Numbered from the stretch's first letter, positions 1,742 to 23,025 are shown. The stretch: 64,000 nucleotides of DNA from Acidobacteriota bacterium (GCA_022821145.1 JAJEEE010000025.1:18050-82049); one strand, 5' to 3'. Notes: generated by a model from the sequence alone, not told the origin. Numbers and translations are program-made.

Positions 1742-4438
1742 TCAGTCGGCCCGAAGCGCGTCGGCGGGCCGGACGTTCGCGGCCCGCCACGCTGGGAACA
1801 GGCTGGCCAAGGTCGCGACGACGAGAATGACCCCGGCGATCGTTCCGAAAACCAGCGGGTCGTGCGGGGAGACGTCGAAAAGCAGGTCCGCGATGAACGA
1901 ACTGGCCAGGCCGGCGATCAGGACGCCCGCGGCGACCGAAACCACCGCGTTTCGGAGGCCGTCCCCGAGCACGCGGTTCAAGAGCGTTTCGCGGCTTTCT
2001 CCGACCGCGAGGCGAATCGCGAATTCCTGCCGGCGCTGCGAGGCCGCATAGGAAACAGACGACCACAGACCGATCACCGCCAGCAACACGGCCAGAATGC
2101 CGAAGGCCGTAAAGACCGAGGCGCCCAGGCGCCACGGACGGATCTGCGGATCCAGAACGTCACCCAGGGCCTCGATGCCGATATAAGGCAAGCCGGAATC
2201 CAACTCATAAAGGGCGTCGCGGATCGTGGAATCGTTCCGGCCAACGCCATCCGCCGTTCTGACGAGCAACGCCCTCGGTCCGTCGGCACTCAGCAGCAGC
2301 GGCGTATAGAAGTAGGCACGGACATCGTCCTCGACCAGGCTCCATGTCCGCGCGTCGCCCACTACGCCGACGACCGTCGCACATTCGTCGGGCCACACGT
2401 GTACATACGAGCATCGGCCGATGGGAGACTGATCGGGCCATGCCAGTCTCGCCAAGCTCTCATTGACGATGACGACCCTTCCATTCAACCGATCGGCTTC
2501 GACAAACGCCCGACCCTCGACGATGCGCATGCCTGTCGTCTGGAAGAAACCCGGCGTGACGGCGTTGGAGAAAGGAACGCCGTCCCGCGGAGAGGAGATA
2601 CTTCCCTGGTCCCGGTCGACGGCGAAAGAACCAGCACTGGCCACTCGAAGAGGCACCCTCCTGCTCACGCTGGCCCGACTCACACCCGGCAGGACCGAGA
2701 TTCGCTCAAGTGCGCGTTCGAAGAATGCGGCGTGCCCGGTGTCTCGACCGAATCGGGAAAAATCGACTTGAACGACCAGCACGTTCTCCCTGTCCAGGCC
2801 CATATTCGCGGTTTCCAGGTTGTATAGACTCCGCAAGAACAAACCCGCGCCCACCAGCAGCACGACCGACAGGGCCCCTTGTACGGCGACCAACACTCCC
2901 TGCATGCGAGGGCGCCGGGTCATGGCGGCTGAAGGGCCCTCACGGAACGACCTCAACGGGTGGGCCCGCAGGAAGTACAGAGGCGCCATCCCCGCGACCA
3001 GCGCCGTGCCGACCATCGACGCCGCCGCCACCGACAGAACACTGGGATGGACGACGGCTGAGGGTTCCCACGCCATTGCGGGGAGCAACGTCCGGTGCAG
3101 CCAAGCGCCCGCCCAAATCTGGGCGAGTATCGCCGCGGTTCCTCCCAGCACGGCCACGACCGAACTTTCGGTCAGAAGCTGGAGCGCGAGTTCCCTTCGA
3201 CCGATGCCCACCGCGAGGCGGACGGCGATTTCACGCCGGCGCCGGAGGGTACGAAGCAGCAGCAGCCCCGCAACGTTGGCGGACGCGATCAGGATGAAGA
3301 CAACCGCCACTCCGAGGAGCCAGACCGTGACGCGCGCTTCCGGAATCGGGCGGAGATTGTCTCCCAAACCACCGGTCAACGGTCCCAGGAGCGAGCGGGA
3401 TCGTCGATACGGTTCCATGCGCTCCACGGAGGCGTCCCGAAAAATCGGAGCGTAAGTCTCTTCCAGAAACGCACGCTGTAAATTGGTTAGTTCCGCCGAC
3501 GACTGCGCGGGCGAGGCTCCTTCCCTCAAGCGCAATACGATCCTCAGGGTATACGACGAACTGATCGTGTGCCACGTGACCGGTCGTCCCGACCCGTCAT
3601 CCCGGGTAAACAACGGCAGCCAGAGATCCACCTCCTGGAGTTCGACACCACGAAACCCACGTGGAGCAATCCCGACGATCGTGTACGGCTGTCCATGGAT
3701 TTCCAGCGTCTGCCCGACGATGCCGGGATCCCCGCCCAGGCGAACCTGCCAGAACGCGTGCCCCAGGACGACGACTCGGGCGCCGGTTGCCGGATGCGCT
3801 TCGCTGTCGTCGATGAAGCGCCCTATTTCGGGGCGCGTTCCCAGTGTTTCCCAGAATCCCGGAGAGACCATGACGACTTCCGCCATCTCTGCATCGATTC
3901 CAGATCCGACCGGGAGCGTCGTGTCTGCGTACGCCCCGAGGGATTCGAGAGTCCGTGCCCGCTCCGACAACAACTCGAAGAACGGATAGGATGTTGCCCC
4001 GCCAGGTTCACCCTCCCCACCATCAATCCAGAACACCTGACGGAACTTGAACACGCGATCGGGGGCTGAAACATGCGGAGGCGGCGCCAAGATCAAGTTT
4101 TGGGTGACGCTGAACATGCCGGTCACGGCGCCGATGCCGATGGCGATCGTCAGAACGGCGGTTGCCGACACGCCTGGTTGGCGGCGGATTCCTCGAAGCG
4201 CGTAGACGAGATTCCGCCGTAGAGTGTCCGACCAACCGAAGCCGGTGAGATCGTAAACGCGTTCTCTCACGGCCGTCGAGTTGCCGAACTGACGCCGGGC
4301 CGAGGCGTATGCCTCGTCGGGGGGCATCCCCGATTCTTCGTTCAACTCCGCCCGCATTGCGACGTGGGTCTCGATCTCCCGGCTTACGTCCTCGCTGATC
4401 GACGAACGGCGGAACAGCCGCTGGAACAGATTTCTCAT
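1742..4438 (-). CDS. ABC transporter permease, duplicated FtsX/MacB-like (ADOP family)
   Basis: About 898 aa from the internal start MRNLFQRLF at 4438. Two FtsX-type 4-TM blocks flank large periplasmic domains. The ATG overlaps the PadR stop (ATGA). Confidence 0.8.
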   Translation of the reverse strand: MRNLFQRLFRRSSISEDVSREIETHVAMRAELNEESGMPPDEAYASARRQFGNSTAVRERVYDLTGFGWSDTLRRNLVYALRGIRRQPGVSATAVLTIAIGIGAVTGMFSVTQNLILAPPPHVSAPDRVFKFRQVFWIDGGEGEPGGATSYPFFELLSERARTLESLGAYADTTLPVGSGIDAEMAEVVMVSPGFWETLGTRPEIGRFIDDSEAHPATGARVVVLGHAFWQVRLGGDPGIVGQTLEIHGQPYTIVGIAPRGFRGVELQEVDLWLPLFTRDDGSGRPVTWHTISSSYTLRIVLRLREGASPAQSSAELTNLQRAFLEETYAPIFRDASVERMEPYRRSRSLLGPLTGGLGDNLRPIPEARVTVWLLGVAVVFILIASANVAGLLLLRTLRRRREIAVRLAVGIGRRELALQLLTESSVVAVLGGTAAILAQIWAGAWLHRTLLPAMAWEPSAVVHPSVLSVAAASMVGTALVAGMAPLYFLRAHPLRSFREGPSAAMTRRPRMQGVLVAVQGALSVVLLVGAGLFLRSLYNLETANMGLDRENVLVVQVDFSRFGRDTGHAAFFERALERISVLPGVSRASVSRRVPLRVASAGSFAVDRDQGSISSPRDGVPFSNAVTPGFFQTTGMRIVEGRAFVEADRLNGRVVIVNESLARLAWPDQSPIGRCSYVHVWPDECATVVGVVGDARTWSLVEDDVRAYFYTPLLLSADGPRALLVRTADGVGRNDSTIRDALYELDSGLPYIGIEALGDVLDPQIRPWRLGASVFTAFGILAVLLAVIGLWSSVSYAASQRRQEFAIRLAVGESRETLLNRVLGDGLRNAVVSVAAGVLIAGLASSFIADLLFDVSPHDPLVFGTIAGVILVVATLASLFPAWRAANVRPADALRAD

Positions 4439-4764
4439 ACGCCCCCCAGCACCTTCGCAACGCTGCGTGTCAGGACGCTCCAGCGCCGCTCGACTTCCGC
4501 CAACCGGGCTCTTCCGCGACGCGTCAAGGCGTAGTAGCGGGCGCGCCGCCCCTTCTCGGTCGTCTTCCATTCGCCTTGGATGACGTTCTCGCGTTCCAGC
4601 CGGCGGAGAGCGGGATAGAGCGAGCCTTCCTCCACGCGGAGCATGCCGTCCGACACGGTCTGGATGTGCAACGTGATTCCGAAGCCGTGGTTCGGACGGC
4701 CCTCCAGAGTTTTCAGAATCAGGAGGTCCAGTGTTCCCTGAAGAGAGTCCGTCTGTTTGGGCAT
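4435..4764 (-). CDS. PadR family transcriptional regulator
   Basis: 109 aa. PadR winged-helix motif LILKTLEGRPNHGFGI...EEGSLYPALRRLE. Start-stop coupled to the downstream permease. Confidence 0.85.
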   Translation of the reverse strand: MPKQTDSLQGTLDLLILKTLEGRPNHGFGITLHIQTVSDGMLRVEEGSLYPALRRLERENVIQGEWKTTEKGRRARYYALTRRGRARLAEVERRWSVLTRSVAKVLGGV

Positions 4765-4891
4765 CGGCCGTCTCCCCTAGAAGTCTGGGTGAATACTACG
4801 GGCGGAAAACGGCCGCCGTCAACAAGAGAATCGCGAAGAGACGAGGGTACCGGACGAAACAGAATACGGCTGGGTGCTGAGGCGGCGCGGC

Positions 4892-5260
4892 TCAGTCCAC
4901 GCGCGCCGTATCGACGATGTACGCCGAGAGGGCGGCCAGGTCGGCGTCGCTGACCTCGGTCTTGCGGAAGGGCGCCATCACGCTCACGCCGTTCCGGACG
5001 AAAAAGGCGATCCGTTCCGGCGTCAGATCGCCGCGTTCGGTCAACACCGCTGGACGGCCATCATCGTACTTGGCCGCCAGAGCCTGTGTCCCCGGCATGT
5101 TGGGACCCGCCGAATGGCACGTCGCGCACCAGTAGTCGTAGACTTCCGCGCCGCGGGCCAACTCCGCGGCGTCCGGCTCATCCTGCGCGGGCGCCGACGT
5201 CCCAGCCAAGAACGCGGCGGTGACGACCGCCGCCGCAACGAAACCGCCCAGGAGCCTCAT
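4892..5260 (-). CDS. mono-heme cytochrome c (PchC-like flavocytochrome subunit)
   Basis: This is the 3' 369 nt of the 681-aa ORF. MRLLGGFVAAAVVTAAFLAGTSAPA is a signal peptide. It carries one CATCH (CXXCH) site. The ATG overlaps the stop of the upstream VAO gene (ATGA). Confidence 0.75.
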   Translation of the reverse strand: MRLLGGFVAAAVVTAAFLAGTSAPAQDEPDAAELARGAEVYDYWCATCHSAGPNMPGTQALAAKYDDGRPAVLTERGDLTPERIAFFVRNGVSVMAPFRKTEVSDADLAALSAYIVDTARVD

Positions 5261-6858
5261 GCGTCCCTCAGGTGGCGGGGCCATATGCCGTAGCGCCCGG
5301 CCGCGATGACGCCGTTCGGGTCCACGGCGTCCTTGATCGTCTCGTGTAGCCGGATCAGGGCGTTGTCGTTGAACGCGTACGCGGCCGCGCAATCGTCCAT
5401 GAACTCCGTGTGCGTGCGGTATTCGCCCCAGCCGTGCTCGGCGGCCACCTCGACGAGCCGCCGGAAGGTGCGGCGCACGGCCTGGTTCGTCTCGATGTCC
5501 GGCATCACGTAGAACATGCAGAGAATCACGAACGTGCGCGGATGGAAGGACTGCGGGAAGACCAGCAGCGCCGTGTCGGTCCCGAATTCCTGCAGAACCT
5601 GCTGGAACACGCGCTGCGACTCGATGACGGCCTCGCCGGTCATGGGGATGACGGGAGAAAAACCGACGTGTCCGCGCGTGGCGGGAGCGAAGTTCGATCG
5701 GGCGCCGATCGAGAAGGTCGCCAGCGTCGGTATGCCCAGGTCCTGCGGGTCGCGGACGCCGGCCTTCTCGGCCTCCGTCAGCGGGAAGCGGTAGAACGCG
5801 CCGTCCCGGAAGCGCGCGCCGGGGATCGACGACAGGCGGCGCCGGGTGTAATCCCACTGCGCGCGCACGACCTCCTCGGGTCCGTAGAACTTGAAGATGT
5901 TCGAGTAGAACGGCACGCCGCGCTCGCGCGCGAACGCGTCGAGACGGGCGATGTCGGCCGCCTCGCCGCTCGCCAGGGCCGCGCGCAGGTCGGGATCCTG
6001 GGCCACCGCGAAGCGCAGCGGCGATTGCAGGTTCGTGCCGGCGTTCTGCAAGCCGGTGTTCATCACGTAGTTCATGTGATCGACGAGCGGGATGACGTCG
6101 TCGTGACCGAACACCTCGACCGTGCCGTCGATATAGGCTTCCGGTTCCGGCATCAGCCAGACGCCCATCTTGGTGACGACGCCGAAGTTGGACTGCGAGA
6201 ACATCCCGTCGATGTACGGCCCGTATCCGTACTTGAAGTGCTGCCACGTCGTCGAGCCCGGCAGCGCGCCCATTCCCGTGCGCACCAGCTCGCCGGAGCC
6301 GGTCACGACCTCCATCCCGCAGTGGGCGTCGAAGTGGTCGCGGTACGGGTTCATCGTGTAGCCGACCCCGTGGTCCAGCGCGTTGCCGACGACGCTGCCC
6401 CAACCCGGGTCCGGGCAGTCGATCCACAGCTTGAGCCCGCGGTCCTGTATGTAGCGGTAGAGGTCGAAGTAGCTGACGCCGGGCTCGACCAGCGCGTAGG
6501 CGTTCCGCTCGTTCACTTCGAGAATCCGGTTCATGCGCTTCAGGTCGAGCACGACGCTGCCGGACAGCACCGGCGCGGCGCCGCCGTATCCGAGGTTCCG
6601 GCCCGTCGAGATCGGATAGAGCGGCACGCGAAACTCGTTGGCGACGCGCACGACGGCCTGGACCTGGTCGGCCGAGCCGGGCGCGACGGCCGCCGAGGCC
6701 ACTTTCTCGTCGGGCTCGTTCCACAGCGGCGAGTATGCGTCGCGGTACAAGGCGACATCCGCGTCGCCGGTGAAGACCCACTCCTCGCCCACGATGCCGC
6801 GCCAACGAGAGATCGCGTTGTCGAAATCCGTCTGACGGACTCCTCGGGGAAGCGTCAT
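5257..6858 (-). CDS. FAD-linked oxidase, vanillyl-alcohol oxidase / p-cresol methylhydroxylase flavoprotein family
   Basis: 534 aa from MTLPRGVRQTDFDNAISRWRGIVGEEWVF (GGAGG RBS). FAD_binding_4 and VAO C-terminal motifs (ISTGRNLGYGGAAP, RYGIWP). No signal peptide. Confidence 0.85.
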   Translation of the reverse strand: MTLPRGVRQTDFDNAISRWRGIVGEEWVFTGDADVALYRDAYSPLWNEPDEKVASAAVAPGSADQVQAVVRVANEFRVPLYPISTGRNLGYGGAAPVLSGSVVLDLKRMNRILEVNERNAYALVEPGVSYFDLYRYIQDRGLKLWIDCPDPGWGSVVGNALDHGVGYTMNPYRDHFDAHCGMEVVTGSGELVRTGMGALPGSTTWQHFKYGYGPYIDGMFSQSNFGVVTKMGVWLMPEPEAYIDGTVEVFGHDDVIPLVDHMNYVMNTGLQNAGTNLQSPLRFAVAQDPDLRAALASGEAADIARLDAFARERGVPFYSNIFKFYGPEEVVRAQWDYTRRRLSSIPGARFRDGAFYRFPLTEAEKAGVRDPQDLGIPTLATFSIGARSNFAPATRGHVGFSPVIPMTGEAVIESQRVFQQVLQEFGTDTALLVFPQSFHPRTFVILCMFYVMPDIETNQAVRRTFRRLVEVAAEHGWGEYRTHTEFMDDCAAAYAFNDNALIRLHETIKDAVDPNGVIAAGRYGIWPRHLRDA

Positions 6859-7409
6859 GTTCGGAAGCCTCCGATGCTCGCCCTCGCGCGGGCCGACGGA
6901 CGAGCGGGAGCGATGATCCAGGAATGCAGGACCGCATCGTCGTCGGACGCGGCCGGCATGGCTGCCTCGCTCGGCCCGCGCGGCGAGGTCTCTTCCAGTC
7001 GCGCCCGGGCCATGGCCTCGGCCACGCGCTCGGGCAACGCGCCGTCCGTCCACGGGGCCGCGTGCCTGCCGTGGTACACGACCCGCATTCCGTGGTCCCA
7101 CGCCAGGCGCTCCAGGCAGAACAACGCCCCTCGCGCGGTCAACCCCGCCAGGGGCGCCGGTTCGACCGTCCAGCGCGGGTGGAGCTCTTCGAACCAGAGC
7201 CGCGTGACGTCCCCGTCGATGGCGCGTGGCTCCAAGCCGAAGGGCCGAATCGCGTCGGCGAAACGGCGGGCCGGCTCGAACCTTCGGTCGAACACGGCCA
7301 TGCGGGGGCCGGGCGCGTCCATGGACGTCTCCGAGCGCGCGACAATCGGCGCAGCCGCGGCCAGCGCCGTGGCCCGGAGGAACTCACGCCGGTTCGTCAC
7401 TGGATTCAC
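6855..7409 (-). CDS. hypothetical protein with twin-arginine (Tat) signal
   Basis: Inferred GTG start gives VNPVTNRREFLRATALAAAAPIVA (S/T-RRxFL Tat motif). About 184 aa. Its stop overlaps the VAO start (ATGA) and its start overlaps the stop of the upstream small secreted gene (GTGA). Confidence 0.45.
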   Translation of the reverse strand: MNPVTNRREFLRATALAAAAPIVARSETSMDAPGPRMAVFDRRFEPARRFADAIRPFGLEPRAIDGDVTRLWFEELHPRWTVEPAPLAGLTARGALFCLERLAWDHGMRVVYHGRHAAPWTDGALPERVAEAMARARLEETSPRGPSEAAMPAASDDDAVLHSWIIAPARPSARARASIGGFRT

Positions 7410-7828
7410 CGCTCCTCGTCCTCGCCGGGCGCGCCCGTCCCGGGCGAGCCCAGGAACAATTGCGACCCGTCGGGCAGCGTGACGTTGCGCCCGTTCGCCG
7501 CGTTGGACCCGTCGCGGTGACGGTAGCCGAAAACGACGACCGCGGTGCCGTTCGGGATGGAATCCCGGGTCATGCCCCGGCGGACGAGCGTGTTGGGACT
7601 GCCCGCCTCGATCATCCAGCTTTCGACGGCGCCGTCCTGGCCTTCGACGTCGATGTGAAGCCACGCATGCGGATTGATCCACTCGATGCGCGTGATGGTG
7701 CCCTCGAGCGTGATCGGCTGGTTCTCGTCGAACTCCGCCGAGAACGCGTGGTGGGCCGCCGCGGGCGCCGCCGCGACCAGGACGGCGCCGGCAAGAACCG
7801 CCGCTTGCATCCATCGGGAGCTATTCAT
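7406..7828 (-). CDS. small secreted protein, family A (predicted mature N-terminus His-His)
   Basis: 140 aa from MNSSRWMQAAVLAGAVLVAAAPAAA|HHAFSAEFDENQPITLEGTITRIEWINPH. GGAGG RBS. It is a paralog of the 21858-22232 product. Confidence 0.55.
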   Translation of the reverse strand: MNSSRWMQAAVLAGAVLVAAAPAAAHHAFSAEFDENQPITLEGTITRIEWINPHAWLHIDVEGQDGAVESWMIEAGSPNTLVRRGMTRDSIPNGTAVVVFGYRHRDGSNAANGRNVTLPDGSQLFLGSPGTGAPGEDEER

Positions 7829-8786
7829 CTCCGGCCTCCGCTCGGCGTTCCTCCGCCCGCGCCGCCGAGAGCAAGCCGCGCAGTCCGTAGTTGCCCTCGT
7901 GACACGCGAATTCAATGAGCGGTCCCGCCTGGGGGTGCATGAAGATCTCCACGGTCCAGGGCTCGGTGAATACGTCGGGGTCGTCGATGGTGGCCCGGTA
8001 GCGGATCTGATCCGGCGCGGTGCGCGTGAATTCCTCCGTAACCCGGAAATTGTCGCTCATGACGGAATTCAGGTACTGGACGCCGTAGAAGTGCCTGTTG
8101 GGCCGTTGGTTCGCGGTTTCCACCACCAGCGTGTCGCCCTCCCAGCGGCCCCGCGAGTCGCCCGTCCACTGTCGTACGCGGTCGGGAAAGTGCGGGCGGC
8201 CGTCGATCGGAATGATCCGGACCTCGTGGTTGAGCTCGGCCATGATCGTCACGTAGTCGGGCGTCTGCACGATGTAGTAGTTGTTGTTGTAGGGCTCCGG
8301 GAACATCGGCGCGGCTCCGCCCCCGAACACGATGCATCGTTCGGTCAGGTACCGGTCCTCGGGCGAATCGGCCGGGTGCTCTGCCATGTAGGCCAGGTTC
8401 TCCTCGAACCGGCGCTGCGCCTCCGGCGTGAAGGGGGGAACGCGGCCGTCGGCGGGCTCGATCACCAGCGACGTACGCAGGGTGGGCACGATAGAGTTGC
8501 CGCGGTCGAACCAGGCGTCGTTGTACGAGCCGACCGATCCCGGCTGCCCGATGGTCCGGTCGGCGTTGGTGGCCTCGATTCTCTCCCGGACGTAGGCTTC
8601 GGCTTCCTCGGGCGTGAAGAACTCCGTGTCCGCAAGCTCGGACGGGCGCTGGAGCGGCGTCAGCGTCGCGTTCGACCACAGTCCCTGCAGATCCGGATCG
8701 CCCCACGACGTGCGCTGTGCGAGGCCTTCGGCCGGAACCGCGGACATCGCCAGCGCCGCCATGGCGAGAATGTGTCGATGGGTCAT
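7821..8786 (-). CDS. secreted protein, family B paralog (B2)
   Basis: 321 aa from MTHRHILAMAALAMSAVPAEGLA. It shares the motifs WEGDTLVVET and DDPDVFTEPWT with 8801-9583 and 22232-22996. I rejected the 5' extension of the 584-aa ORF. Confidence 0.6.
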   Translation of the reverse strand: MTHRHILAMAALAMSAVPAEGLAQRTSWGDPDLQGLWSNATLTPLQRPSELADTEFFTPEEAEAYVRERIEATNADRTIGQPGSVGSYNDAWFDRGNSIVPTLRTSLVIEPADGRVPPFTPEAQRRFEENLAYMAEHPADSPEDRYLTERCIVFGGGAAPMFPEPYNNNYYIVQTPDYVTIMAELNHEVRIIPIDGRPHFPDRVRQWTGDSRGRWEGDTLVVETANQRPNRHFYGVQYLNSVMSDNFRVTEEFTRTAPDQIRYRATIDDPDVFTEPWTVEIFMHPQAGPLIEFACHEGNYGLRGLLSAARAEERRAEAGDE

Positions 8787-8800
8787 CGTTCGGCTCCTCG

Positions 8801-9583
8801 TCACTCGTCCGGCCGCCGGATGAATTCGCCGTAGAGCAGTTCCTCGGTGAACTCCACGCACTTGAACTCCATCAAGTGCGCGTCGGGGTCGGGATTCCGG
8901 TACAGACGGAAACGCATCGTCCACGGCCGGGAGAACGTTTCGGGATCTTCGATCGTGGCCTCGTACTCCATGACGTCGGGTCCCGTCAGCGTGTACCGCT
9001 CGACGACGCGCGTCCCGGCGCCCGCGTGGTTGCCGGCGCGGTCCAGCCAGGCCAACCCGTTGAAGCCGGTCACCTCGACGACCAGCGTGTCGCCGTCCCA
9101 ACTCGCGTTCGACCAACCCATCCAACTGTCGAGGGGCGACGGGCGGTGGTCGCTCAGGTTGATGATGCGCGCGGCGCCCGCGAACTGGTACGTGAACTGC
9201 ATGTACCCTTCGGAGTGGAAGATCTGGAACGGATAGGGCATGTAGTTCGCTCGAGGGACACCGGGCATGAAGCACTTCGCCTCCGGATCCTCCGTCCAAC
9301 GGCTCTCGAAGTTGCGGTCCCTTTCGGCCGCCGCCTCGGGAAGATAGGGGATTTCGTCGCCGTCGACGATGCCGCGGCCCGGGGGCGCGGCCATGAGCGC
9401 GCCGTATTCGGGCGGCCCCGCGCCGGCGCCGTGCGTCAGGATATTCCAGTTCGCCGTGGTCAACGACTGCCAGACTCCGCTGAGATTCGGCGTGCCGTCC
9501 GACAGCCGCGGGATGTCCGTTCCGGCGCACCCTCCCGCCGCCACCGCCGCGGAGATCAGGCACGGAACGAACCATCGTCTCAT
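8801..9583 (-). CDS. secreted/lipoprotein, family B paralog (B1)
   Basis: 260 aa. AAGGAG RBS. The signal MRRWFVPCLISAAVAAGGC is lipobox-like. Motifs IPRLSDGTP, WDGDTLVVEV and EDPETFSRPWT. Confidence 0.65.
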   Translation of the reverse strand: MRRWFVPCLISAAVAAGGCAGTDIPRLSDGTPNLSGVWQSLTTANWNILTHGAGAGPPEYGALMAAPPGRGIVDGDEIPYLPEAAAERDRNFESRWTEDPEAKCFMPGVPRANYMPYPFQIFHSEGYMQFTYQFAGAARIINLSDHRPSPLDSWMGWSNASWDGDTLVVEVTGFNGLAWLDRAGNHAGAGTRVVERYTLTGPDVMEYEATIEDPETFSRPWTMRFRLYRNPDPDAHLMEFKCVEFTEELLYGEFIRRPDE

Positions 9584-9602
9584 CGCGGTCTCCTTGTCTT
9601 CG

Positions 9603-10862
9603 TCACTCGCCGGCGGGCTCGATGCGCAGGATCGACCCGTCGGGCGTGAGCCGGGCGCTTCCCGGACCGGATTGCAGGTCCCGCTCGACGGCGATGTAGA
9701 CGTTGCCGTCGGGTCCCTGGCGGACGTCCCGCACTCGAACGTCGAGGGGGATCAGCATGGAATCGCGGCGCTCGGGCTGCGGCGGCGGCTGATCGAAGGC
9801 CACGCGTTGCAACTGCTGCCCGCTCAACCCACCGATGAAGTAGTGCCCGCGCCACAACGGGAACCGGTCGCCGTCGTAGATCATCAGGCTGGACGGACTG
9901 ATCGCCGGAACCCAGAACATCACCGGCATCTCGATGCCGGGCCCCCACCAGGGCTGTTCGGAGGCGAGATTGCCGGTGTAGATCTTCCCCAGCGACACCA
10001 CCGGCCATCCGTAGTTCGCTCCGGGAACCAGCCGATTGAGCTCGTCGCCGGCCATCGGCCCGATTTCCGTGGCCCAGAGCTCGCCGGTCTCCGGATGCCA
10101 CGCCAGGCCCTGAGCGTTGCGATGACCGTAGGTGAAGATCTCGGGCAGCGCGTCGTCGCGCCCGGCGAACGGATTGCCGGGCGCCGCCCGGCCGTCGTCG
10201 CTCAACCGCAGCACCTTTCCGACGTGGTTGTCGAGCCCCTGAGCCAGCATGCGGTAGCTTGCGTCGTCGGTCAGATTGCCGGCGTCCCGGTCGCCGACGG
10301 TCAGGTACAACATCCCGTCGGGACCGAACTCGGCGCGCCCCGCCGTCGCGCCGCTGCCCCACGCCTCGGCCACGAACACGTCCTCGACTTCCGACAACGC
10401 CGCCCCGTCGAAACGCGCCCGCGCCAGTGCGACCGTGGTGCCCTCATCGCCCGCCTTGATGTAGGACAGGTAGACCCAACGGTTCTCTTCGAAATCCGGA
10501 TGAAGCGCGACCGAGTTCAGGCTTTCGGAGCGCAACGCGTCGTCGGGCCAGCCGGCGACCGGCGATGGATCGAGCCCATCGTCGCCCACGATGCGCAACC
10601 GGCCGGGGAACTCCGTCACGAGCATGTCGCCGTCCGGCAGGAAGGTCAGGTGCCACGGCCGCACCAGGCCATCGGCGACGGTCACCACGCGAATGCGCAC
10701 CAACTCGCCCGGCGGGCATCCGCCATGCAGTCCGCCGTTCGGAGAGCACGGACCGGGGGTGTACGTATCGAACACCCAGGTCGCGGCGTCGTCGGGAGCC
10801 TGGCGGCAGGACGCGGCGAGCAGCAGGACGCCCGCCAACATGGCCGTTCGGTGCGCGTGCAC
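9603..10862 (-). CDS. PQQ-dependent soluble sugar (aldose) dehydrogenase, YliI/SGDH family lipoprotein
   Basis: 419 aa. Lipobox LAASC. GSDH-family beta-propeller motifs YGHRNAQGLAWHPETGELWATE and GANYGWP. Confidence 0.8.
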   Translation of the reverse strand: MHAHRTAMLAGVLLLAASCRQAPDDAATWVFDTYTPGPCSPNGGLHGGCPPGELVRIRVVTVADGLVRPWHLTFLPDGDMLVTEFPGRLRIVGDDGLDPSPVAGWPDDALRSESLNSVALHPDFEENRWVYLSYIKAGDEGTTVALARARFDGAALSEVEDVFVAEAWGSGATAGRAEFGPDGMLYLTVGDRDAGNLTDDASYRMLAQGLDNHVGKVLRLSDDGRAAPGNPFAGRDDALPEIFTYGHRNAQGLAWHPETGELWATEIGPMAGDELNRLVPGANYGWPVVSLGKIYTGNLASEQPWWGPGIEMPVMFWVPAISPSSLMIYDGDRFPLWRGHYFIGGLSGQQLQRVAFDQPPPQPERRDSMLIPLDVRVRDVRQGPDGNVYIAVERDLQSGPGSARLTPDGSILRIEPAGE

Positions 10863-10969
10863 TGTCGTCCTCCGTTCGAGTGGGCGTGCGTTACCGACGA
10901 TAGGCGTCCGGTTCCGCCGGCGTCAAGTCGTTTCCGAAACCGGACGGACCCGCGCCGGGACGGCAACGC

Positions 10970-12217
10970 CTACCTGAGAATGCCCTCGAGCACGTCGAGG
11001 CGTCCGTCGATCTCCTCGACGATCTCGAGTCCGAGAATCCGCATGACGAGCGGGTATATGTGGATGTTCTCGAAGCTCGGAATCGTCATCGCGTCGGCCA
11101 GCCCGGGCCCCTGCGCGAAGAAGACGCCGTGCATATCGGGATGGCGGACCGGGTCGTAACCGTGCGCGCCGCCGGAAACCTCGCCGCGCATGTTTCGGAA
11201 ACGAATCGAATAGGGGGCCTCGGCCGCCACGATCAGGTCTCCGAGCCGGGGGTGCGCCGCGTTCCAGTGCTCGGGCGTTTCGCCGGACCGGAACACCCGA
11301 TAGTGGTTCTCCGCGTTCTTCAGGGCTTCGTACAGCGCCTCAACGCGCGCTTCGCCGTCAACGTACAGGAGGCTGTGGCTCCCGGATCCGATCGCGCGAA
11401 CTCCCTGTAGATCCACGATGTCGTCCAGATAGATCACGCGTGCGGGATCCACGTCGACCATGCCGTGGTCGGAAACGACGAACACGTTGACGCCGAAATC
11501 GAGCGCGCGGAGGCCGTCGAAGAGGACGCCCAGTTGATCGTCGAGCCGCGCGATCGCCGAGGCAAGCTCCTCGGAGCGCGTCCCATGGTCATGCGCGGCG
11601 GAGTCGATCGCGGCAAAGTAGAGCGTCACCAGGTGCGGCCGGTATTCCTCGGGCCAGGAGAACCATTCCAGGACGGCCCGGACGCGTTCGGCCTGCGCGA
11701 TCGATCCGTCGTACCGGTAGTAGTAGGAGGGATGCACGCCCTGGATGTCCGCTTCCGTACCCACCCAGAAGTAACTCGCGGTAACCATCCCGGCCCGTTC
11801 GGCAGCCACCCAGAGCGGCGTGCCGCCGTACCATCCGCCGTCTTCGACGGCATCGCGGTCTCCCAGTCGATAGCGCGCGTTGCGCGTGCGGTCGAAGAAA
11901 TCGTTGCTGACGATGCCATGCGTCCCCGGGTACATTCCGGTCGCGATCGTGTAATGGTTCGGGAACGTCTCCGAGGGATAACCGGGCACGAAACTCTCGG
12001 CCCGGACGCCCTCGGCGGCCCATCGTTCCAGGTTCGGCGCGTCGTGGACGTCCAGGTAGTCGTGACGGAACCCGTCCAGGGAGATCAGCAAAACGTACGG
12101 CTTGCCGCGGTGCTCCTCCGCGTTGGCCCGCATGAAGGGCGACTGAGGCGACGCCGACTCCGGGCACGCGGCAAGACCGAGACCGAGGACGGCAAGAAAC
12201 GCCGCCCTGAGCTTCAT
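10970..12217 (-). CDS. ectonucleotide pyrophosphatase/phosphodiesterase (alkaline-phosphatase superfamily) lipoprotein
   Basis: Start MKLRAAFLAVLGLGLAAC (lipobox). NPP motifs ISLDGFRHDY, FPNHYTIATG and VVSDHGM. Confidence 0.75.
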   Translation of the reverse strand: MKLRAAFLAVLGLGLAACPESASPQSPFMRANAEEHRGKPYVLLISLDGFRHDYLDVHDAPNLERWAAEGVRAESFVPGYPSETFPNHYTIATGMYPGTHGIVSNDFFDRTRNARYRLGDRDAVEDGGWYGGTPLWVAAERAGMVTASYFWVGTEADIQGVHPSYYYRYDGSIAQAERVRAVLEWFSWPEEYRPHLVTLYFAAIDSAAHDHGTRSEELASAIARLDDQLGVLFDGLRALDFGVNVFVVSDHGMVDVDPARVIYLDDIVDLQGVRAIGSGSHSLLYVDGEARVEALYEALKNAENHYRVFRSGETPEHWNAAHPRLGDLIVAAEAPYSIRFRNMRGEVSGGAHGYDPVRHPDMHGVFFAQGPGLADAMTIPSFENIHIYPLVMRILGLEIVEEIDGRLDVLEGILR

Positions 12218-21159: not shown

Positions 21160-21786
21160 ATGGGCGCAAACGACGAACTGTACGGCTTCGTGAAGGAGGC
21201 GATGGCGCGCGGCGCGGCGCTGGAGCAGATTCGCGGCGCCCTCGTGGACGCGGGATGGGACGAGTCCCGTGTCCGGCAGGCCCTGGCGGCCTATGACGAG
21301 GGCGCGCTCGGAATTCCGGTGCCGCGGCCCCGGCCGTCCGAGGCGCGAGAGGCTCTCGTGTATCTGGTCCTGTTCGCCACCATATACTTGAGCGCGTTCA
21401 ACCTGGGCAACGTGGCTTTCCAACTCGTCAACCGCGGCTTTCCCGTGGCCGGCCAATCGGACGTCCAGGTCGACGACGCGATTCGGTTGTCGGCCTCCAT
21501 TCTCGTCGTCTCGCTGCCCGTGTTCCTGGTGCTGACGCGCGCGACCCGGCGCGCGGTCGAACGCGACCCGTCGCGCCGGGCATCGGCCATGCGCCGGTGG
21601 CTGACATCCCTGACGCTGGCCGTATCGTCGTTCGCGTGTCTGGGGGTCTTCAGCACGATCGTGTACAACTTCCTCGGCGACGCCCTGACGGCGCGTTTCG
21701 TCCTGAAGGCGCTTTCGGCCGGGATCATCGCCGCCGGCGTGTTCGCCTACTATCTGCGGGACATCCGCGAGGACGCCGCGCCCTGA
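21160..21786 (+). CDS. hypothetical membrane protein
   Basis: 208 aa. N-terminal soluble segment then about 4 hydrophobic helices. AAGGGG RBS. Confidence 0.45.
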   Translation: MGANDELYGFVKEAMARGAALEQIRGALVDAGWDESRVRQALAAYDEGALGIPVPRPRPSEAREALVYLVLFATIYLSAFNLGNVAFQLVNRGFPVAGQSDVQVDDAIRLSASILVVSLPVFLVLTRATRRAVERDPSRRASAMRRWLTSLTLAVSSFACLGVFSTIVYNFLGDALTARFVLKALSAGIIAAGVFAYYLRDIREDAAP

Positions 21787-21857
21787 GTCCCCGCGAATGC
21801 GAACTGCCGCCCGGACCGTTTCCCGGGGGTGTAGAATTGAGCGCCACGGGAGGCGTT

Positions 21858-22232
21858 ATGTCACGGCTATATTTCTTGGTCCCGATTGCCTTCGCGGTCG
21901 GGATGACCGCGGAGGCGGCGCATCACTCGATCGCCGCCGAATTCGACGCGGAGGATCCGATCACGCTCGTCGGCACGATTCGCGAAGTCGTCTGGATGAG
22001 CCCGCACATCAGCGTCTTCGTCGACGTGACGCAGGACGGCGGCGAGGTCCGGACGTACGAAGTGCAGGGCGGACCGCCGAATCGGCTCTACCGGAACGGC
22101 TCCCGGTCCACGGACCTGATGCCGGGCGACGCGGTCGTCGTCGAAGGCGCGCGCGCCCGGAACCCGGACAGCCTCCGCGTGGGCGAGGGCGAGTTCCACA
22201 AGCCCGACGGCACGCCGGTATGGGCGGACTGA
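21858..22232 (+). CDS. small secreted protein, family A paralog (A2)
   Basis: 124 aa. GGGAGG RBS. MSRLYFLVPIAFAVGMTAEAA|HHSIAAEFDAEDPITLVGTIREVVWMSPH aligns with 7406-7828. Its stop overlaps the next ATG (TGATG). Confidence 0.55.
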   Translation: MSRLYFLVPIAFAVGMTAEAAHHSIAAEFDAEDPITLVGTIREVVWMSPHISVFVDVTQDGGEVRTYEVQGGPPNRLYRNGSRSTDLMPGDAVVVEGARARNPDSLRVGEGEFHKPDGTPVWAD

Positions 22233-22996
22233 TGCGGCCGCGGATCGCCCGGGCGCTTTTCGCCGTCTTCTTCGTCTCTTCGCTCGCGTCCGCCCAGGAC
22301 GCCGGCGACGCCATTCCGCGCCTGCCCGACGGAAAGCCGAGCATGGCCGGGTTCTGGGGGCAGGTCCGCCGCGCCGACGTGACCGACTCCCGAATTCCGG
22401 GATATGTCGAAGAGCTGCCGTTCAGCGAATGGGGGCTCGAGCAATGGGAAAACTACGACCGGACCGATCCGGAACAGGGCGACTACGCGGGCAGTTGCAT
22501 GCCGTTCGGAATCTCCCGCACCGTTTTCGGCCCTCAACCGATCGCCATCGTGCAGGATGACGACCACCTGGTCTTCCTGGCCGAGCAGAACTCCTGGTTT
22601 CACATGGTTCCGACCGACGGCCGCGGTTACGATCCCGAGCTTCCGCCGTCGTGGTGGGGCGATTCGGTCGGACGCTGGGACGGCGACACCCTGATCGTCG
22701 AGACGCGCAACCTGAACGGCTACGCCAAGGTCGACACGATCGGACATCCCATCAGCAGCCTGGCGACCATCATCCAGACCTTCGAGCGCGTCGACGCCGA
22801 AACCATCGAGCACACGTACACGCTCGACGACCCGGGGGCCTACACCGAGCCCTGGACCGTGCGCAACACGTGGAGACACCACCCACCGGGTTTCCGGATG
22901 ATGGAATACTCCTGCATGGAGAACAACCTGACCGGGTTGACGGGAGGCACGCTCATTCCGTGGAAGCGGCCCACCGAGACCCGGCCCCCGGACTAA
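22232..22996 (+). CDS. secreted protein, family B paralog (B3)
   Basis: 254 aa. Signal MRPRIARALFAVFFVSSLASA. Motifs IPRLPDGKP, WDGDTLIVET and DDPGAYTEPWT. Confidence 0.65.
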   Translation: MRPRIARALFAVFFVSSLASAQDAGDAIPRLPDGKPSMAGFWGQVRRADVTDSRIPGYVEELPFSEWGLEQWENYDRTDPEQGDYAGSCMPFGISRTVFGPQPIAIVQDDDHLVFLAEQNSWFHMVPTDGRGYDPELPPSWWGDSVGRWDGDTLIVETRNLNGYAKVDTIGHPISSLATIIQTFERVDAETIEHTYTLDDPGAYTEPWTVRNTWRHHPPGFRMMEYSCMENNLTGLTGGTLIPWKRPTETRPPD

Positions 22997-23025
22997 CCGC
23001 ACGCCGCCGCGCCGCAGGAGGCCCC

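Follow-up and report, generated by a model that had tools for sequence, protein, structure and literature searches.

A probable Tat-escorted flavocytochrome of the PCMH type encoded by a conserved three-gene module in an Acidobacteriota bacterium

Gene order and junctions at the locus

The window, meaning the whole 64,000-nucleotide stretch of Acidobacteriota DNA analysed here, carries four ORFs of particular interest on its minus strand: a DUF6152 protein of 140 amino acids with a Sec-type signal (7406..7828; Pfam PF19649, E 4.8e-34); TatX, a protein of 184 amino acids (181 from a GTG at 7400) that belongs to an unnamed family and is proposed here as a Tat escort or small flavoprotein subunit (6855..7409); a VAO/PCMH-family 4-phenol-oxidising flavoprotein of 533 amino acids (5257..6858; Pfam FAD_binding_4, PF01565, 1.4e-33); and a mono-haem class I cytochrome c of 122 amino acids with a Sec-type signal (4892..5260; Pfam Cytochrome_CBB3, 9.1e-15). 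The first of these, listed in a preliminary description of this DNA as a small A protein, is a DUF6152 member, scoring 116.8 bits against PF19649 (gathering cutoff 27), with a predicted mature N-terminus of HHAFSAEFD. Three further minus-strand genes lie upstream. GSDH, a PQQ-type soluble glucose/sorbosone dehydrogenase (9603..10862; Pfam PF07995, E 1.9e-101), is followed by protein A, of 260 amino acids with a lipoprotein-like N-terminus (8801..9583), and by its paralogue protein B, of 321 amino acids with the signal-peptide-like N-terminus MTHRHILAMAALAMSAVPAEGLA (7821..8786; phmmer A versus B about 1e-17), neither of which has a Pfam match. A sigma-70-like promoter match precedes GSDH on the minus strand (10897..10926; TTGACG-18-TATCGT, 9/12 consensus matches), a call that is a consensus match only; it is a possible start of a seven-gene transcription unit, and the only other promoter match in 4400-11300 lies before a PadR gene.

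The chain of start and stop overlaps claimed in the preliminary description can be read directly in the sequence. The flavoprotein ATG overlaps the TatX stop (ATGA, 6858-6855), the cytochrome ATG overlaps the flavoprotein stop (ATGA, 5260-5257), and the TatX GTG overlaps the DUF6152 stop (GTGA, 7409-7406); a further overlap, absent from that description, joins the stop of gene B to the DUF6152 ATG (ATGAATAG, 7828-7821). The accompanying claim that translation is strictly coupled at all junctions goes too far for DUF6152 and TatX, where an alternative in-frame GTG at 7400, 9 nt downstream, gives MTNRREFL and leaves a 5-nt gap with no overlap. Because this start matches the N-terminus of most homologues, we regard this junction as the sole uncertain one; the twin-arginine motif, whose loss through a downstream start had been raised as a danger, is kept with both. 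Since four-base overlaps are common within operons, the overlaps alone are weak evidence. Among relatives, 98 of 113 pairs retain the flavoprotein/cytochrome overlap (ATGA, GTGA or TTGA in frame with the cytochrome), while TatX always ends between -8 and +76 nt from the flavoprotein start, with the -4 overlap in 13 of 104 pairs.

The flavoprotein and the cytochrome c

The flavoprotein combines its FAD-binding domain with a C-terminal cap domain (PF02913, 4.4e-05), and its PDB matches are led by 9h40, annotated as 'p-cresol methylhydroxylase' (7.5e-187), followed by VAD of Marinicaulis flavus (8s7p, 5e-143; 8S7N and related), with EUGO, VAO and PchF (1dii, 2e-86) also matched. Residues 3-532 align to 9h40, 8s7p, 5fxd, 1ahu and 1dii, which places the protein in the PchF/EUGH/VAO/EUGO/VAD group and bears out the earlier assignment of the flavoprotein and mono-haem cytochrome c to a PCMH-type flavocytochrome. 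Residue 3 already aligns with residues 2-5 of homologues of known crystal structure, which leaves no space for a signal peptide, in agreement with the preliminary description, and a credible twin-arginine signal was found in none of 203 relatives with an intact flavoprotein N-terminus. The phenolate-binding set, in NLGY91GG and GWGEY480R481TH, is invariant in the flavoprotein alignment and conserved in VAD and 9h40; we take its counterparts to be VAO Tyr108, Tyr503 and Arg504, with phenolate-binding roles.

His397 (TRGH-VGFSPV; codon 5668..5670, minus strand) aligns with the histidines of VAD (8s7p, GGGHVGFSPV) and of a pNL1 homologue (GGGHINFSPI) and is the predicted 8-alpha-N3-histidyl-FAD site, equivalent, presumably, to VAO His422 and EUGO His390. 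The column of PchF Tyr384 (GLY-NWRGGGG, 1dii), the FAD-linking residue of that enzyme, holds Gly in the window protein (FSIG-ARS), whereas the PchF-type relatives L008 and L009 keep Tyr. The suggested check for a covalent-FAD Tyr or His was therefore answered by a VAO-type His, and an assignment to the Tyr-linked PchF proper was rejected. At the flavin N5 site, where PchF has a small residue followed by Ile, the window protein has D150-P151 in PDPGWGS, identical to VAD with its N5-contacting Pro151, so that this motif and the flavin-linking His form a signature common to both. Pro or Ile at the N5-contacting position marks a dehydrogenase and Leu an oxidase (PMC7617285). The flavoprotein is thus predicted to be a dehydrogenase, expected to need an endogenous cytochrome c.

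The adjacent cytochrome combines a Sec-like hydrophobic N-terminus (MRLLGGFVAAAVVTAAFLAGTSAPA/QD), as had been described, with one haem-binding CATCH motif from Cys45 to His49 (5114..5128, minus strand). A single CxxCH, a Sec signal and a flavoprotein-adjacent gene are the attributes of a PchC-type cytochrome. A phmmer search of all PDB chains at E up to 0.01 returned cytochromes c6 as the nearest sequences, along with CcoP and QcrC, and matched no chain of 1dii or 1diq; the window cytochrome thus differs from PchC in having no similarity detectable by PDB sequence search. Given its CxxCH motif and Sec-like signal, the functional complex must be periplasmic, and P. putida PCMH was reportedly described as periplasmic by Hopper et al. 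in 1985.

TatX and the conserved triad

The third component, TatX, begins with a twin-arginine signal peptide (7338..7409, minus strand), read as M-NPVT-N-RR-EFL-R with the h-region ATALAAAAPIVA and a basic c-region (A/RS) at the inferred cleavage site; its N-terminus, TNRREFLRATALAAAAPIVARS, has the (S/T)-R-R-x-F-L-K-like motif, h-region and basic c-region that define a Tat substrate. The motif MxxRRxF(L/I/V) recurs in 117 of 120 homologues and 133 of 138 representatives, and the members lacking it look like N-terminally truncated gene calls. TatX scores 18.4 bits against Pfam TAT_signal (PF10518), below the cutoff of 22.7, and 14.8 bits against TIGR01409 (cutoff 16.7), while PF10518 hits with E up to 0.1 were obtained for 18 of 37 members of the family. 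The family comprises 2105 representative clusters at 50% identity. The 661 homologues retrieved all lack a name or carry the label 'hypothetical protein', and no Pfam domain had been precomputed for any of them; no Pfam or NCBIfam model covers the mature part. The initial view of the intervening protein as a Tat-signal protein without a cofactor motif is supported, and the protein is conserved.

AlphaFold2 predicts TatX (pLDDT 83.7) to be an alpha/beta protein whose beta-alpha-beta sandwich is compact and Rossmann-like; a fold search of the PDB gave no match at E up to 1e-3. About 16 residues are invariant, including D67, T69, E100, R109 and H116, and these could instead constitute a ligand or catalytic site. 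TatX might accordingly be read as a periplasmic enzyme or a binding protein for flavin, the phenolic substrate or its quinone-methide or aldehyde product, acting beside the flavocytochrome without binding it; the predicted sandwich and the invariant polar residues fit such a role, as does Tat export, which is typical for proteins that fold or bind ligand in the cytoplasm. Set against this are the absence of any cofactor or nucleotide-binding motif from TatX, the lack of a significant sequence or structural match to any enzyme in PDB, Pfam and NCBIfam searches, and a translational linkage to the flavoprotein that is unusually tight for a free-standing pathway enzyme. Moreover, the mature domain diverges nearly beyond recognition across flavoprotein clades whose chemistry is unchanged. 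An independent enzymatic or ligand-binding function is therefore judged quite unlikely. At the same loci, TatX is 61/44/43/33% identical to the window protein and the flavoprotein 89/56/54/48%, and this faster evolution, together with the missing cofactor motif, fits a constraint acting on an interface only, which counts for the escort reading discussed below.

TatX, flavoprotein and cytochrome c form a conserved three-gene module that is found at well over 100 bacterial loci. Among metagenome TatX loci with at least 300 bp of downstream sequence, the flavoprotein lies immediately downstream on the same strand in 59 of 62, and where at least 2.3 kb are available the flavoprotein is present in 28/28 and the cytochrome c in 27/28. 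Among 78 genome flavoprotein loci, 44 have both TatX and cytochrome c, 15 cytochrome c only and 17 neither, TatX without cytochrome c occurring at 0 testable loci (Fisher p = 1.5e-8, uncorrected for phylogeny). TatX is thus restricted to loci carrying cytochrome c. About 15 of about 59 flavoprotein and cytochrome loci in the clade, roughly a quarter, have no TatX within 5 kb and mostly no other small twin-arginine protein, so that TatX is either dispensable in some cases or specified by a gene elsewhere in those genomes. A few TatX genes adjoin cytochromes c with no flavoprotein within reach (L006, and L105, L135, L167 and L169 on short contigs). Additionally, the Novosphingobium relative L059 lacks TatX, and its flavoprotein has a 41-residue RR-containing N-terminal extension.

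GSDH is an upstream neighbour that stands outside this triad. The preliminary description had considered the triad a possible terminal electron-acceptor branch of the SGDH/A/B module. In a fuller form of this reading, it would be dedicated to GSDH, A, B and DUF6152 and would re-oxidise the products or cofactors of these genes' module. In keeping with this, the seven genes are co-directional and closely spaced behind a single promoter-like site before GSDH, the same seven-gene order is found again in L001 and L002, and about a dozen of 89 loci have a DUF6152 or A/B-like gene no more than 5 kb from the flavoprotein. However, the four upstream genes precede the triad only in L001 and L002, the nearest relatives, and at the large majority of over 150 loci the triad stands alone among unrelated neighbours, which include SDRs, pseudoazurin, aldehyde dehydrogenases and tandem flavoprotein paralogues. 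The flavoprotein also keeps the Tyr/Tyr/Arg set of 4-phenol oxidoreductases and should therefore have a substrate of its own. On this comparative evidence, the link to the GSDH module appears local rather than general, and the electron-acceptor reading, already largely refuted by synteny, is most improbable.

Export of the flavoprotein and its known counterparts

How a signal-less flavoprotein would meet a periplasmic cytochrome is probably answered by TatX. The triad is best explained as a PCMH-type periplasmic 4-alkylphenol or 4-hydroxybenzyl-alcohol dehydrogenase, a flavocytochrome whose flavoprotein is exported by Tat hitch-hiking on TatX, with the binding, the co-export and the fate of TatX inferred. 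The flavoprotein would fold and bind FAD in the cytoplasm, where TatX, translated just before it from the shared mRNA, would bind the folded protein, and the twin-arginine signal of TatX would direct the complex to the Tat translocase. The cytochrome c would cross unfolded via Sec and receive its haem in the periplasm, then dock on the flavoprotein and pass FADH2 electrons either to the respiratory chain or to an azurin- or pseudoazurin-type soluble acceptor. After export, TatX may leave or stay as a small third subunit. Raised at first as one of two ideas, hitch-hiking appears on comparative grounds to be the best-supported reading, and the L059 flavoprotein, with its own RR extension and no TatX, suggests that the signal itself is the needed function. 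Counted against it are the roughly 15 flavocytochrome loci without a nearby TatX, the few TatX genes without a flavoprotein, the invariant TatX residues that might mark a ligand or catalytic site, and the TAT_signal score below threshold.

The same synteny and cytochrome-c restriction could also reflect an independently exported periplasmic accessory subunit that docks, stabilises or membrane-tethers the complex or modulates electron transfer to the cytochrome or azurin, the flavoprotein being exported otherwise. The TatX-less loci, where a flavoprotein lacking a signal is nonetheless paired with a Sec cytochrome, argue for this arrangement, as do the strongly conserved TatX core and the cytochromes c that are the sole flank of some TatX genes. 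It would, however, leave the flavoprotein without an alternative way out, as we know of no other route by which a signal-less protein already folded with its FAD is exported, and the apparent RR extension of the L059 flavoprotein also speaks against it. To our knowledge, no third chain is present in purified P. putida PCMH or its deposited structures (1DII), and PDB chain searches found none in PCMH structures; a third subunit is thus unreported, and an escort would have to dissociate. Taken together, an accessory role in place of escort is unlikely, though less so than an enzymatic one.

Hitch-hiker export has precedents in the small subunits of fructose, gluconate and sorbitol dehydrogenases. 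In Burkholderia cepacia FAD-GDH, the gamma subunit serves as Tat hitch-hiker for the signal-less FAD subunit, which afterwards joins a cytochrome c subunit (PMC6719666). The logic is that of the window, with a small cofactor-less twin-arginine subunit, a signal-less FAD catalytic subunit and a Sec-exported cytochrome c. The catalytic subunit of that enzyme is a GMC oxidoreductase with a 3Fe-4S cluster, whereas the window flavoprotein is VAO/PCMH, and gamma is all-alpha with five helices (PMC6719666), while TatX is predicted to be alpha/beta. Searches of Pfam, NCBIfam and PDB folds gave no sequence or fold match of TatX to gamma or the gluconate 2-dehydrogenase subunit 3 type, so the resemblance is analogous, not homologous. 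PaoA, the signal-bearing partner in E. coli PaoABC, is itself a redox subunit with cofactors, unlike TatX. PaoABC has signal-less cofactor-bearing subunits exported bound to the Tat-signal partner (PMC4273604). VAD and 9H40 were studied as flavoproteins alone, expressed in E. coli, whereas TatX and cytochrome genes adjoin the window flavoprotein; the VAD paper does not mention a Tat partner, an operon or the periplasm (PMC7617285), and no papers citing 9H40 were found.

A close known counterpart is P. putida pchC-pchX-pchF (PchF2PchC2, 1DII), likewise a periplasmic pairing of a signal-less VAO/PCMH flavoprotein with a Sec-exported mono-haem cytochrome c, whose operon also holds a third small ORF of unknown function. 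PchX is a small ORF inside the pchC/pchF cluster, and TatX similarly directly precedes its flavoprotein, although the order is C-X-F in pch and X-F-C in the window. The PCMH-type plasmid loci inspected come from Sulfuricurvum, Massilia, Rhizobium, Novosphingobium aromaticivorans (two plasmids), N. pentaromativorans, Sphingobium and Roseomonas; in each of them a small RR protein adjoins the flavoprotein, and all except pNL1 have an adjacent cytochrome c gene. In pNL1, whose X protein stands at 72% against A2, the RR protein comes immediately before the flavoprotein; in Sulfuricurvum, Massilia, Rhizobium, pNL2, N. pentaromativorans and Sphingobium it is found between the cytochrome and flavoprotein genes or to one side of them. 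These small proteins are very divergent in sequence from TatX but have its predicted order of secondary-structure elements.

The Sulfuricurvum locus encodes a true PchF orthologue (691 bits to 1dii) in pchC-X-F order, and its pchX-position gene encodes a Tat-signal protein of about 190 amino acids. The predicted secondary-structure elements of this protein follow the same order as those of TatX at nearly the same positions, the second model being of low confidence (pLDDT 54). Its family (A4), used as a proxy for PchX, reaches an hhalign probability of only 11% over 44 columns against the TatX profile (A3), which is non-significant. Since the Sulfuricurvum protein, in the pchX position, itself has a Tat signal and the predicted structural order of TatX, hitch-hiker and pchX-like look like one thing and the two alternatives probably merge. 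TatX, the Sulfuricurvum/Massilia-type X proteins and classical PchX may, at slightly less than even chances, belong to a single rapidly evolving superfamily, so far unrecognised, of Tat escorts dedicated to VAO/PCMH flavocytochromes.

Covalent flavinylation of PchF has been described as triggered by its cytochrome. The escort might keep the FAD-loaded flavoprotein competent for export and catalytically silent until the cytochrome takes the escort's place in the periplasm, which, if true, would link export to that cytochrome-triggered flavinylation. Such a superfamily would explain how signal-less PchF-type flavoproteins arrive in the periplasm, a question since the sequencing of pch in the 1990s, and the escort role of TatX may also account for the old pchX gene of p-cresol operons.

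Organization of the window locus

Open reading frames read from 8000 to 4800 in the window comprise a DUF6152 protein of 140 aa (7828-7406), the 184-aa Tat-signal protein TatX (7409-6855), a VAO/PCMH flavoprotein of 533 aa (6858-5257) and a cytochrome c of 122 aa (5260-4892). They are preceded by gene B (7821-8786), gene A (8801-9583) and a PQQ-type glucose/sorbosone dehydrogenase gene (GSDH, 9603-10862); every relevant gene lies on the minus strand, in a region of 66-71% G+C. The ATGA junctions at 6858-6855 and 5260-5257, claimed in the preliminary description, are both genuine stop/start overlaps. The GTGA overlap claimed at 7409-7406 is present as sequence, but a second in-frame GTG at 7400 provides an alternative TatX start, yielding MTNRREFL, which is the N-terminus of most TatX homologues; a longer form, MKPLANRREFL, occurs in P0002, the closest TatX relative (71% identity). 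The possibility that a downstream start would remove the twin arginine was not borne out, as the motif is retained with either GTG. Gene B and the DUF6152 gene overlap by 8 nt (ATGAATAG, 7828-7821). Since a sigma-70-like match lies upstream of GSDH (10926-10897), and neither a further such match nor an intrinsic terminator was found between this site and the cytochrome stop, a single transcript of seven genes, from GSDH to cytochrome c, is plausible. Directly downstream of the cytochrome c gene (1742-4764, minus) are a PadR-family regulator (4435-4764) and then a 942-aa FtsX/MacB-looking permease, their families assigned by sequence reading, and a separate promoter-like site is located at 4822-4793, near the regulator gene.

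The DUF6152 protein (Pfam E 4.8e-34) bears a Sec-type signal, while A and B are paralogues of each other that belong to no Pfam family. Cleavage of the DUF6152 protein is predicted at APAAA/HH, giving a mature start of HHAFSAEFD with two histidines, and the protein has a conserved INPH motif; an N-terminal histidine exposed in this way would be reminiscent of histidine-brace copper sites. The window's entire seven-gene order recurs in its nearest relatives, L001 and L002, and only in these three loci do GSDH, A, B and DUF6152 precede the triad of TatX, flavoprotein and cytochrome c, so the proposal that the triad is the electron-acceptor branch of the GSDH module was rejected as a general link. 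Of 89 loci, about a dozen have DUF6152 or A/B-like genes within 5 kb, and their order varies. The window contains another such set at about 21297-24519 (plus), made up of DUF6152-like, A/B-like and weakly GSDH-like frames (phmmer 9.5e-21, 2e-26 and 2.7e-10, respectively), and pairs of DUF6152 and A/B-like genes recur in L001 (several copies), L006, L059, L060, L066 and L085.

The flavoprotein and its cytochrome

The flavoprotein contains FAD_binding_4 and FAD-oxidase C-terminal domains (Pfam) and, in a PDB sequence search, aligns end to end with solved 4-phenol oxidoreductases, including 9h40, entitled 'p-cresol methylhydroxylase' (7.5e-187), the vanillyl alcohol dehydrogenase VAD of Marinicaulis flavus (8s7p and related entries, about 5e-143), eugenol oxidase (about 1e-117), VAO (about 1e-104) and P. 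putida PchF (1dii, 2e-86). Its residue 3 matches residues 2-5 of the crystallised homologues, which agrees with the earlier view that a signal peptide is absent. The flavin-linking Tyr384 of PchF was placed in GLY-NWRGGGG through the 1dii alignment of a PchF orthologue; in the flavoprotein alignment this column holds Tyr in PchF-type proteins (pNL2, Sulfuricurvum) and Gly in the window protein. The search for a covalent-FAD residue nevertheless returned a candidate at the VAO-type position, since His397 (TRGHVGFSPV) shares its column with the His of GGGHVGFSPV in VAD and with a His of the pNL1 flavoprotein; the flavin-linking residues of VAO (His422) and eugenol oxidase (His390) occupy this column. 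The phenolate-binding set Y91, Y480 and R481 (Tyr/Tyr-Arg) is invariant in the same alignment, and the flavin N5 site, D150-P151 (PDPGWGS), is exactly that of VAD. Here Pro or Ile is the hallmark of a dehydrogenase and Leu that of an oxidase, and P151L turns VAD into an oxidase (PMC7617285). The enzyme predicted from these residues is a dehydrogenase of 4-alkylphenols or 4-hydroxybenzyl alcohols that is His-linked and depends on a cytochrome. The PchF/PchC-type flavocytochrome originally proposed thus holds for the PCMH-like architecture, but not for a Tyr-linked PchF, and the window flavocytochrome is a new member of an already known enzyme group.

The cytochrome is of class I (Cytochrome_CBB3 at 9.1e-15, Pfam), has a single CATCH motif and begins with a hydrophobic stretch that ends in APA/QD. 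In a PDB sequence search it came closest to cytochromes c6, and PchC was not matched.

TatX and the proteins in its position

The N-terminus of TatX, MNPVT-N-RR-EFL-R-ATALAAAAPIVA-RS, combines a twin-arginine consensus with an h-region of moderate hydrophobicity and a c-region that contains a basic residue; cleavage is predicted at IVA/RS. It scores slightly below the cutoffs of curated Tat HMMs (18.4 vs 22.7 bits and 14.8 vs 16.7), yet on sequence grounds family-wide conservation of the twin arginine settles the predicted Tat signal: MxxRRxF(L/I/V) is found in 117 of the 120 homologues listed and in 133 of 138 newly listed representatives, the remaining five resembling truncated gene calls. 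All 661 homologues are unnamed or 'hypothetical protein', and a precomputed Pfam domain is attached to none of them. Searching 1.84 billion representatives with the profile gave 2105 clusters at E up to 1e-3, 569 of them at E up to 1e-30, and hence a family of about 2,100 clusters at 50% identity.

The mature domain matches no Pfam-A or NCBIfam model among 37 diverse members scanned. Its core, GD(V/I)TxLW...W...AGLT..GALFCLERLAWDHGMRVV...EH, is strongly conserved, as is the C-terminal strand LxSW(V/I)IAP, and D67, T69, W72, W80, E100, R109, H116 and W164 are invariant. Clusters of Cys or His and nucleotide-binding motifs are lacking, in keeping with the earlier remark that a cofactor motif is missing. 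An AlphaFold2 model built on the family alignment (mean pLDDT 83.7, core above 90, pTM 0.73) runs beta-alpha-beta-alpha-beta-alpha-beta-alpha, followed by a variable loop and a beta strand. Foldseek of this model against the PDB gave nothing at E up to 1e-3, and a PDB sequence search gave no match below E 0.1. At the same loci, TatX identities of 61/44/43/33% stand against flavoprotein identities of 89/56/54/48%, and this faster divergence would be expected if constraint falls on the interface alone.

TatX adjoins a FAD_binding_4 protein and a cytochrome c in five of the six contigs encoding homologues. A metagenome scan with the TatX profile, in which neighbours were typed by local HMM analysis, covered 80 loci. 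In 59 of the 62 loci that extend 300 bp or more beyond TatX, the flavoprotein lies immediately downstream on the same strand; of the 28 extending 2.3 kb or more, all have the flavoprotein and 27 also the cytochrome. In the few exceptions (L105, L135, L167, L169 and L006), a cytochrome c gene directly follows TatX, and the partner may be something other than a VAO/PCMH flavoprotein. TatX of L006 (5529-6873) is flanked by cytochrome c genes and has a VAO/PCMH flavoprotein nowhere within 6 kb; genes for a TPP enzyme, a cytochrome c, an unknown protein and a DUF6152 protein lie close by.

Viewed from the flavoprotein, a genome scan with its alignment yielded 79 loci of 49-84% identity, mostly in MAGs of Acidobacteriota, Steroidobacteraceae and other Proteobacteria, together with Metapseudomonas resinovorans DSM 21078 and two Novosphingobium strains. 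Once two cases had been recovered by six-frame translation, TatX and cytochrome c were both present in 44 loci, cytochrome c without TatX in 15, neither in 17 and TatX without cytochrome c in 0 testable loci, the sole apparent case (L081) ending 69 bp past the flavoprotein (Fisher's exact p 1.5e-8, uncorrected for shared ancestry). TatX therefore goes with cytochrome-linked, hence periplasmic, versions of the enzyme and is absent from stand-alone flavoproteins. Very similar enzymes do occur alone: L011 and L012, MAG loci whose flavoproteins are the closest to that of the window in the genome collection (83-84% identical), have neither partner nearby and, despite belonging to the Asp-Pro 'dehydrogenase' clade, are presumably cytoplasmic. 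The flavoprotein stop and the cytochrome start overlap by 4 nt in 98 of 113 pairs, and the distance from TatX end to flavoprotein start ranges from -8 to +76 nt across all loci. In Acidobacteriota MAGs (L021-L028, L037, L039, L040, L043), one TatX heads three or four tandem flavoprotein paralogues with two interspersed cytochromes c, so that one escort may serve several catalytic subunits or the first paralogue alone may be exported. A pseudoazurin gene lies two genes downstream of a TatX/flavoprotein/cytochrome c/SDR cluster in L007 (7013-7459; Roseomonas mucosa plasmid p1), a parallel to azurin, the electron acceptor of P. putida PCMH.

The suggestion that TatX corresponds to pchX, the third small gene of P. 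putida pchC-pchX-pchF, was examined through a Sulfuricurvum kujiense plasmid encoding a PchF orthologue (691 bits to 1dii), in which the gene between those for cytochrome c and flavoprotein is annotated 'twin-arginine translocation signal domain-containing protein'. Each of the eight plasmid loci inspected (Sulfuricurvum, Massilia, Rhizobium daejeonense, Novosphingobium aromaticivorans pNL1 and pNL2, N. pentaromativorans, Sphingobium yanoikuyae and Roseomonas) encodes, beside the flavoprotein, a small protein of 124-218 aa whose N-terminus carries an RR motif, here called an X protein; a cytochrome c gene is adjacent in all except pNL1. The X proteins of Roseomonas (1e-35) and N. pentaromativorans (7.5e-17) are clear TatX members; the other six are too divergent for clear membership. 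By hhalign, the TatX profile matches the Sulfuricurvum X family at 11% probability, which is not significant, and the pNL1 X protein at 72%. Position, RR motif and predicted element order nonetheless agree: the Sulfuricurvum X elements (E36-41, H42-56, E61-65, H69-82, E87-92, H94-106, E111-117, C-terminal strand), from a model of low overall confidence (AF2, pLDDT 54, core 70-86), lie at nearly the same positions as those of TatX (E37-41, H45-57, E60-64, H69-82, E87-91, H93-104, E108-117, C-terminal strand), and a hydrophobic S-(W/F)-V strand closes both families. On our reading, X proteins and TatX have an architecture in common and probably an origin as well, and TatX is a candidate member of a 'PchX family'. 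No Pseudomonas pch plasmid was recovered from PLSDB by tblastn, whether TatX or the flavoprotein served as query, and word-indexed searches with the Sulfuricurvum and Massilia X proteins gave 34 and 5 close relatives, respectively, none named PchX.

Proposed export of the flavoprotein and its implications

A folded, signal-less FAD enzyme, a partner that matures in the periplasm and a co-translated small Tat-signal protein are most simply accounted for by hitch-hiker export, in which a protein without a signal crosses the membrane bound to a Tat-signal partner. TatX would bind the folded, FAD-containing flavoprotein, the Tat system would export the pair, and the Sec-exported cytochrome c would dock onto the flavoprotein in the periplasm. 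The Tat signal is the one universally conserved feature of X proteins whose sequences otherwise defy recognition. An own Tat signal on the flavoprotein, in place of an escort, was rejected, as none was found among 203 relatives with an intact N-terminus, L059 apart. In this Novosphingobium sp. Rr 2-17 locus (4370-6127, plus), the flavoprotein starts 34 nt past the upstream cytochrome c stop and carries a 41-residue N-terminal extension of RR type, starting MPSRRQSLKTGALAMMVAAV... and containing SRRQSLKTGALAMMVAAV, which is unique among about 205 flavoproteins and receives no score from the Pfam TAT_signal HMM. As no TatX lies within reach, this exception is counted as support for the hitch-hiker account.

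Other observations count against it. About a quarter of the cytochrome-linked loci in the window clade have no TatX within 5 kb and mostly no other RR protein, and some TatX genes stand beside cytochromes only. Near TatX-less flavocytochrome loci, the sole candidate for a small RR protein of another kind is in L047 (7070-7450, minus), a 126-aa frame with an RR signal-like N-terminus (DRRQLLAGAGTAAVAALA) after a second, divergent flavoprotein, which may be another type of X protein. Purified PCMH is an alpha2-beta2 complex that is not known to contain a third chain, so an escort would have to dissociate once export is complete. TatX may also do more than escort, as its invariant polar residues could suggest. 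Given these points, and because binding and co-export are inferred, hitch-hiker export of the flavoprotein by TatX is favoured with moderate confidence; an accessory subunit with no part in export is considered unlikely, and a free-standing pathway protein less likely still.

The gamma subunit of Burkholderia FAD-glucose dehydrogenase (PMC6719666) is a solved example of the same logic. It is all-alpha and not related to TatX, which makes the likeness convergent. Hitch-hiker export of flavoprotein dehydrogenases is already known, the existence of pchX was recognised decades ago, and automatic annotation already labels some X proteins as Tat-signal proteins. In the literature searched, no paper gives PchX a function or ties PCMH-family enzymes, 9H40 included, to Tat. 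What appears undescribed there and in Pfam/NCBIfam is the large TatX family with its near-obligate, cytochrome-dependent coupling to VAO/PCMH flavoproteins, as well as the resulting account of pchX and of the export of signal-less PchF-type subunits.

Dehydrogenases of lignin monomers and phenols are of value as biocatalysts and in bioelectrochemistry, and until now only their flavoprotein has been produced, in the cytoplasm of E. coli; VAD, for instance, was inactive with bovine cytochrome c (PMC7617285). If hitch-hiker export by TatX is correct, the three-gene Tat-exported unit would identify the genes that should be expressed together to reconstitute the physiological flavocytochrome. It would also give a function to a large unnamed family and explain the third gene of p-cresol, eugenol and vanillyl-alcohol dehydrogenase operons, and TatX would be a second, structurally unrelated, cofactor-less hitch-hiker subunit for a periplasmic flavoprotein-cytochrome c dehydrogenase, a case of convergent evolution.
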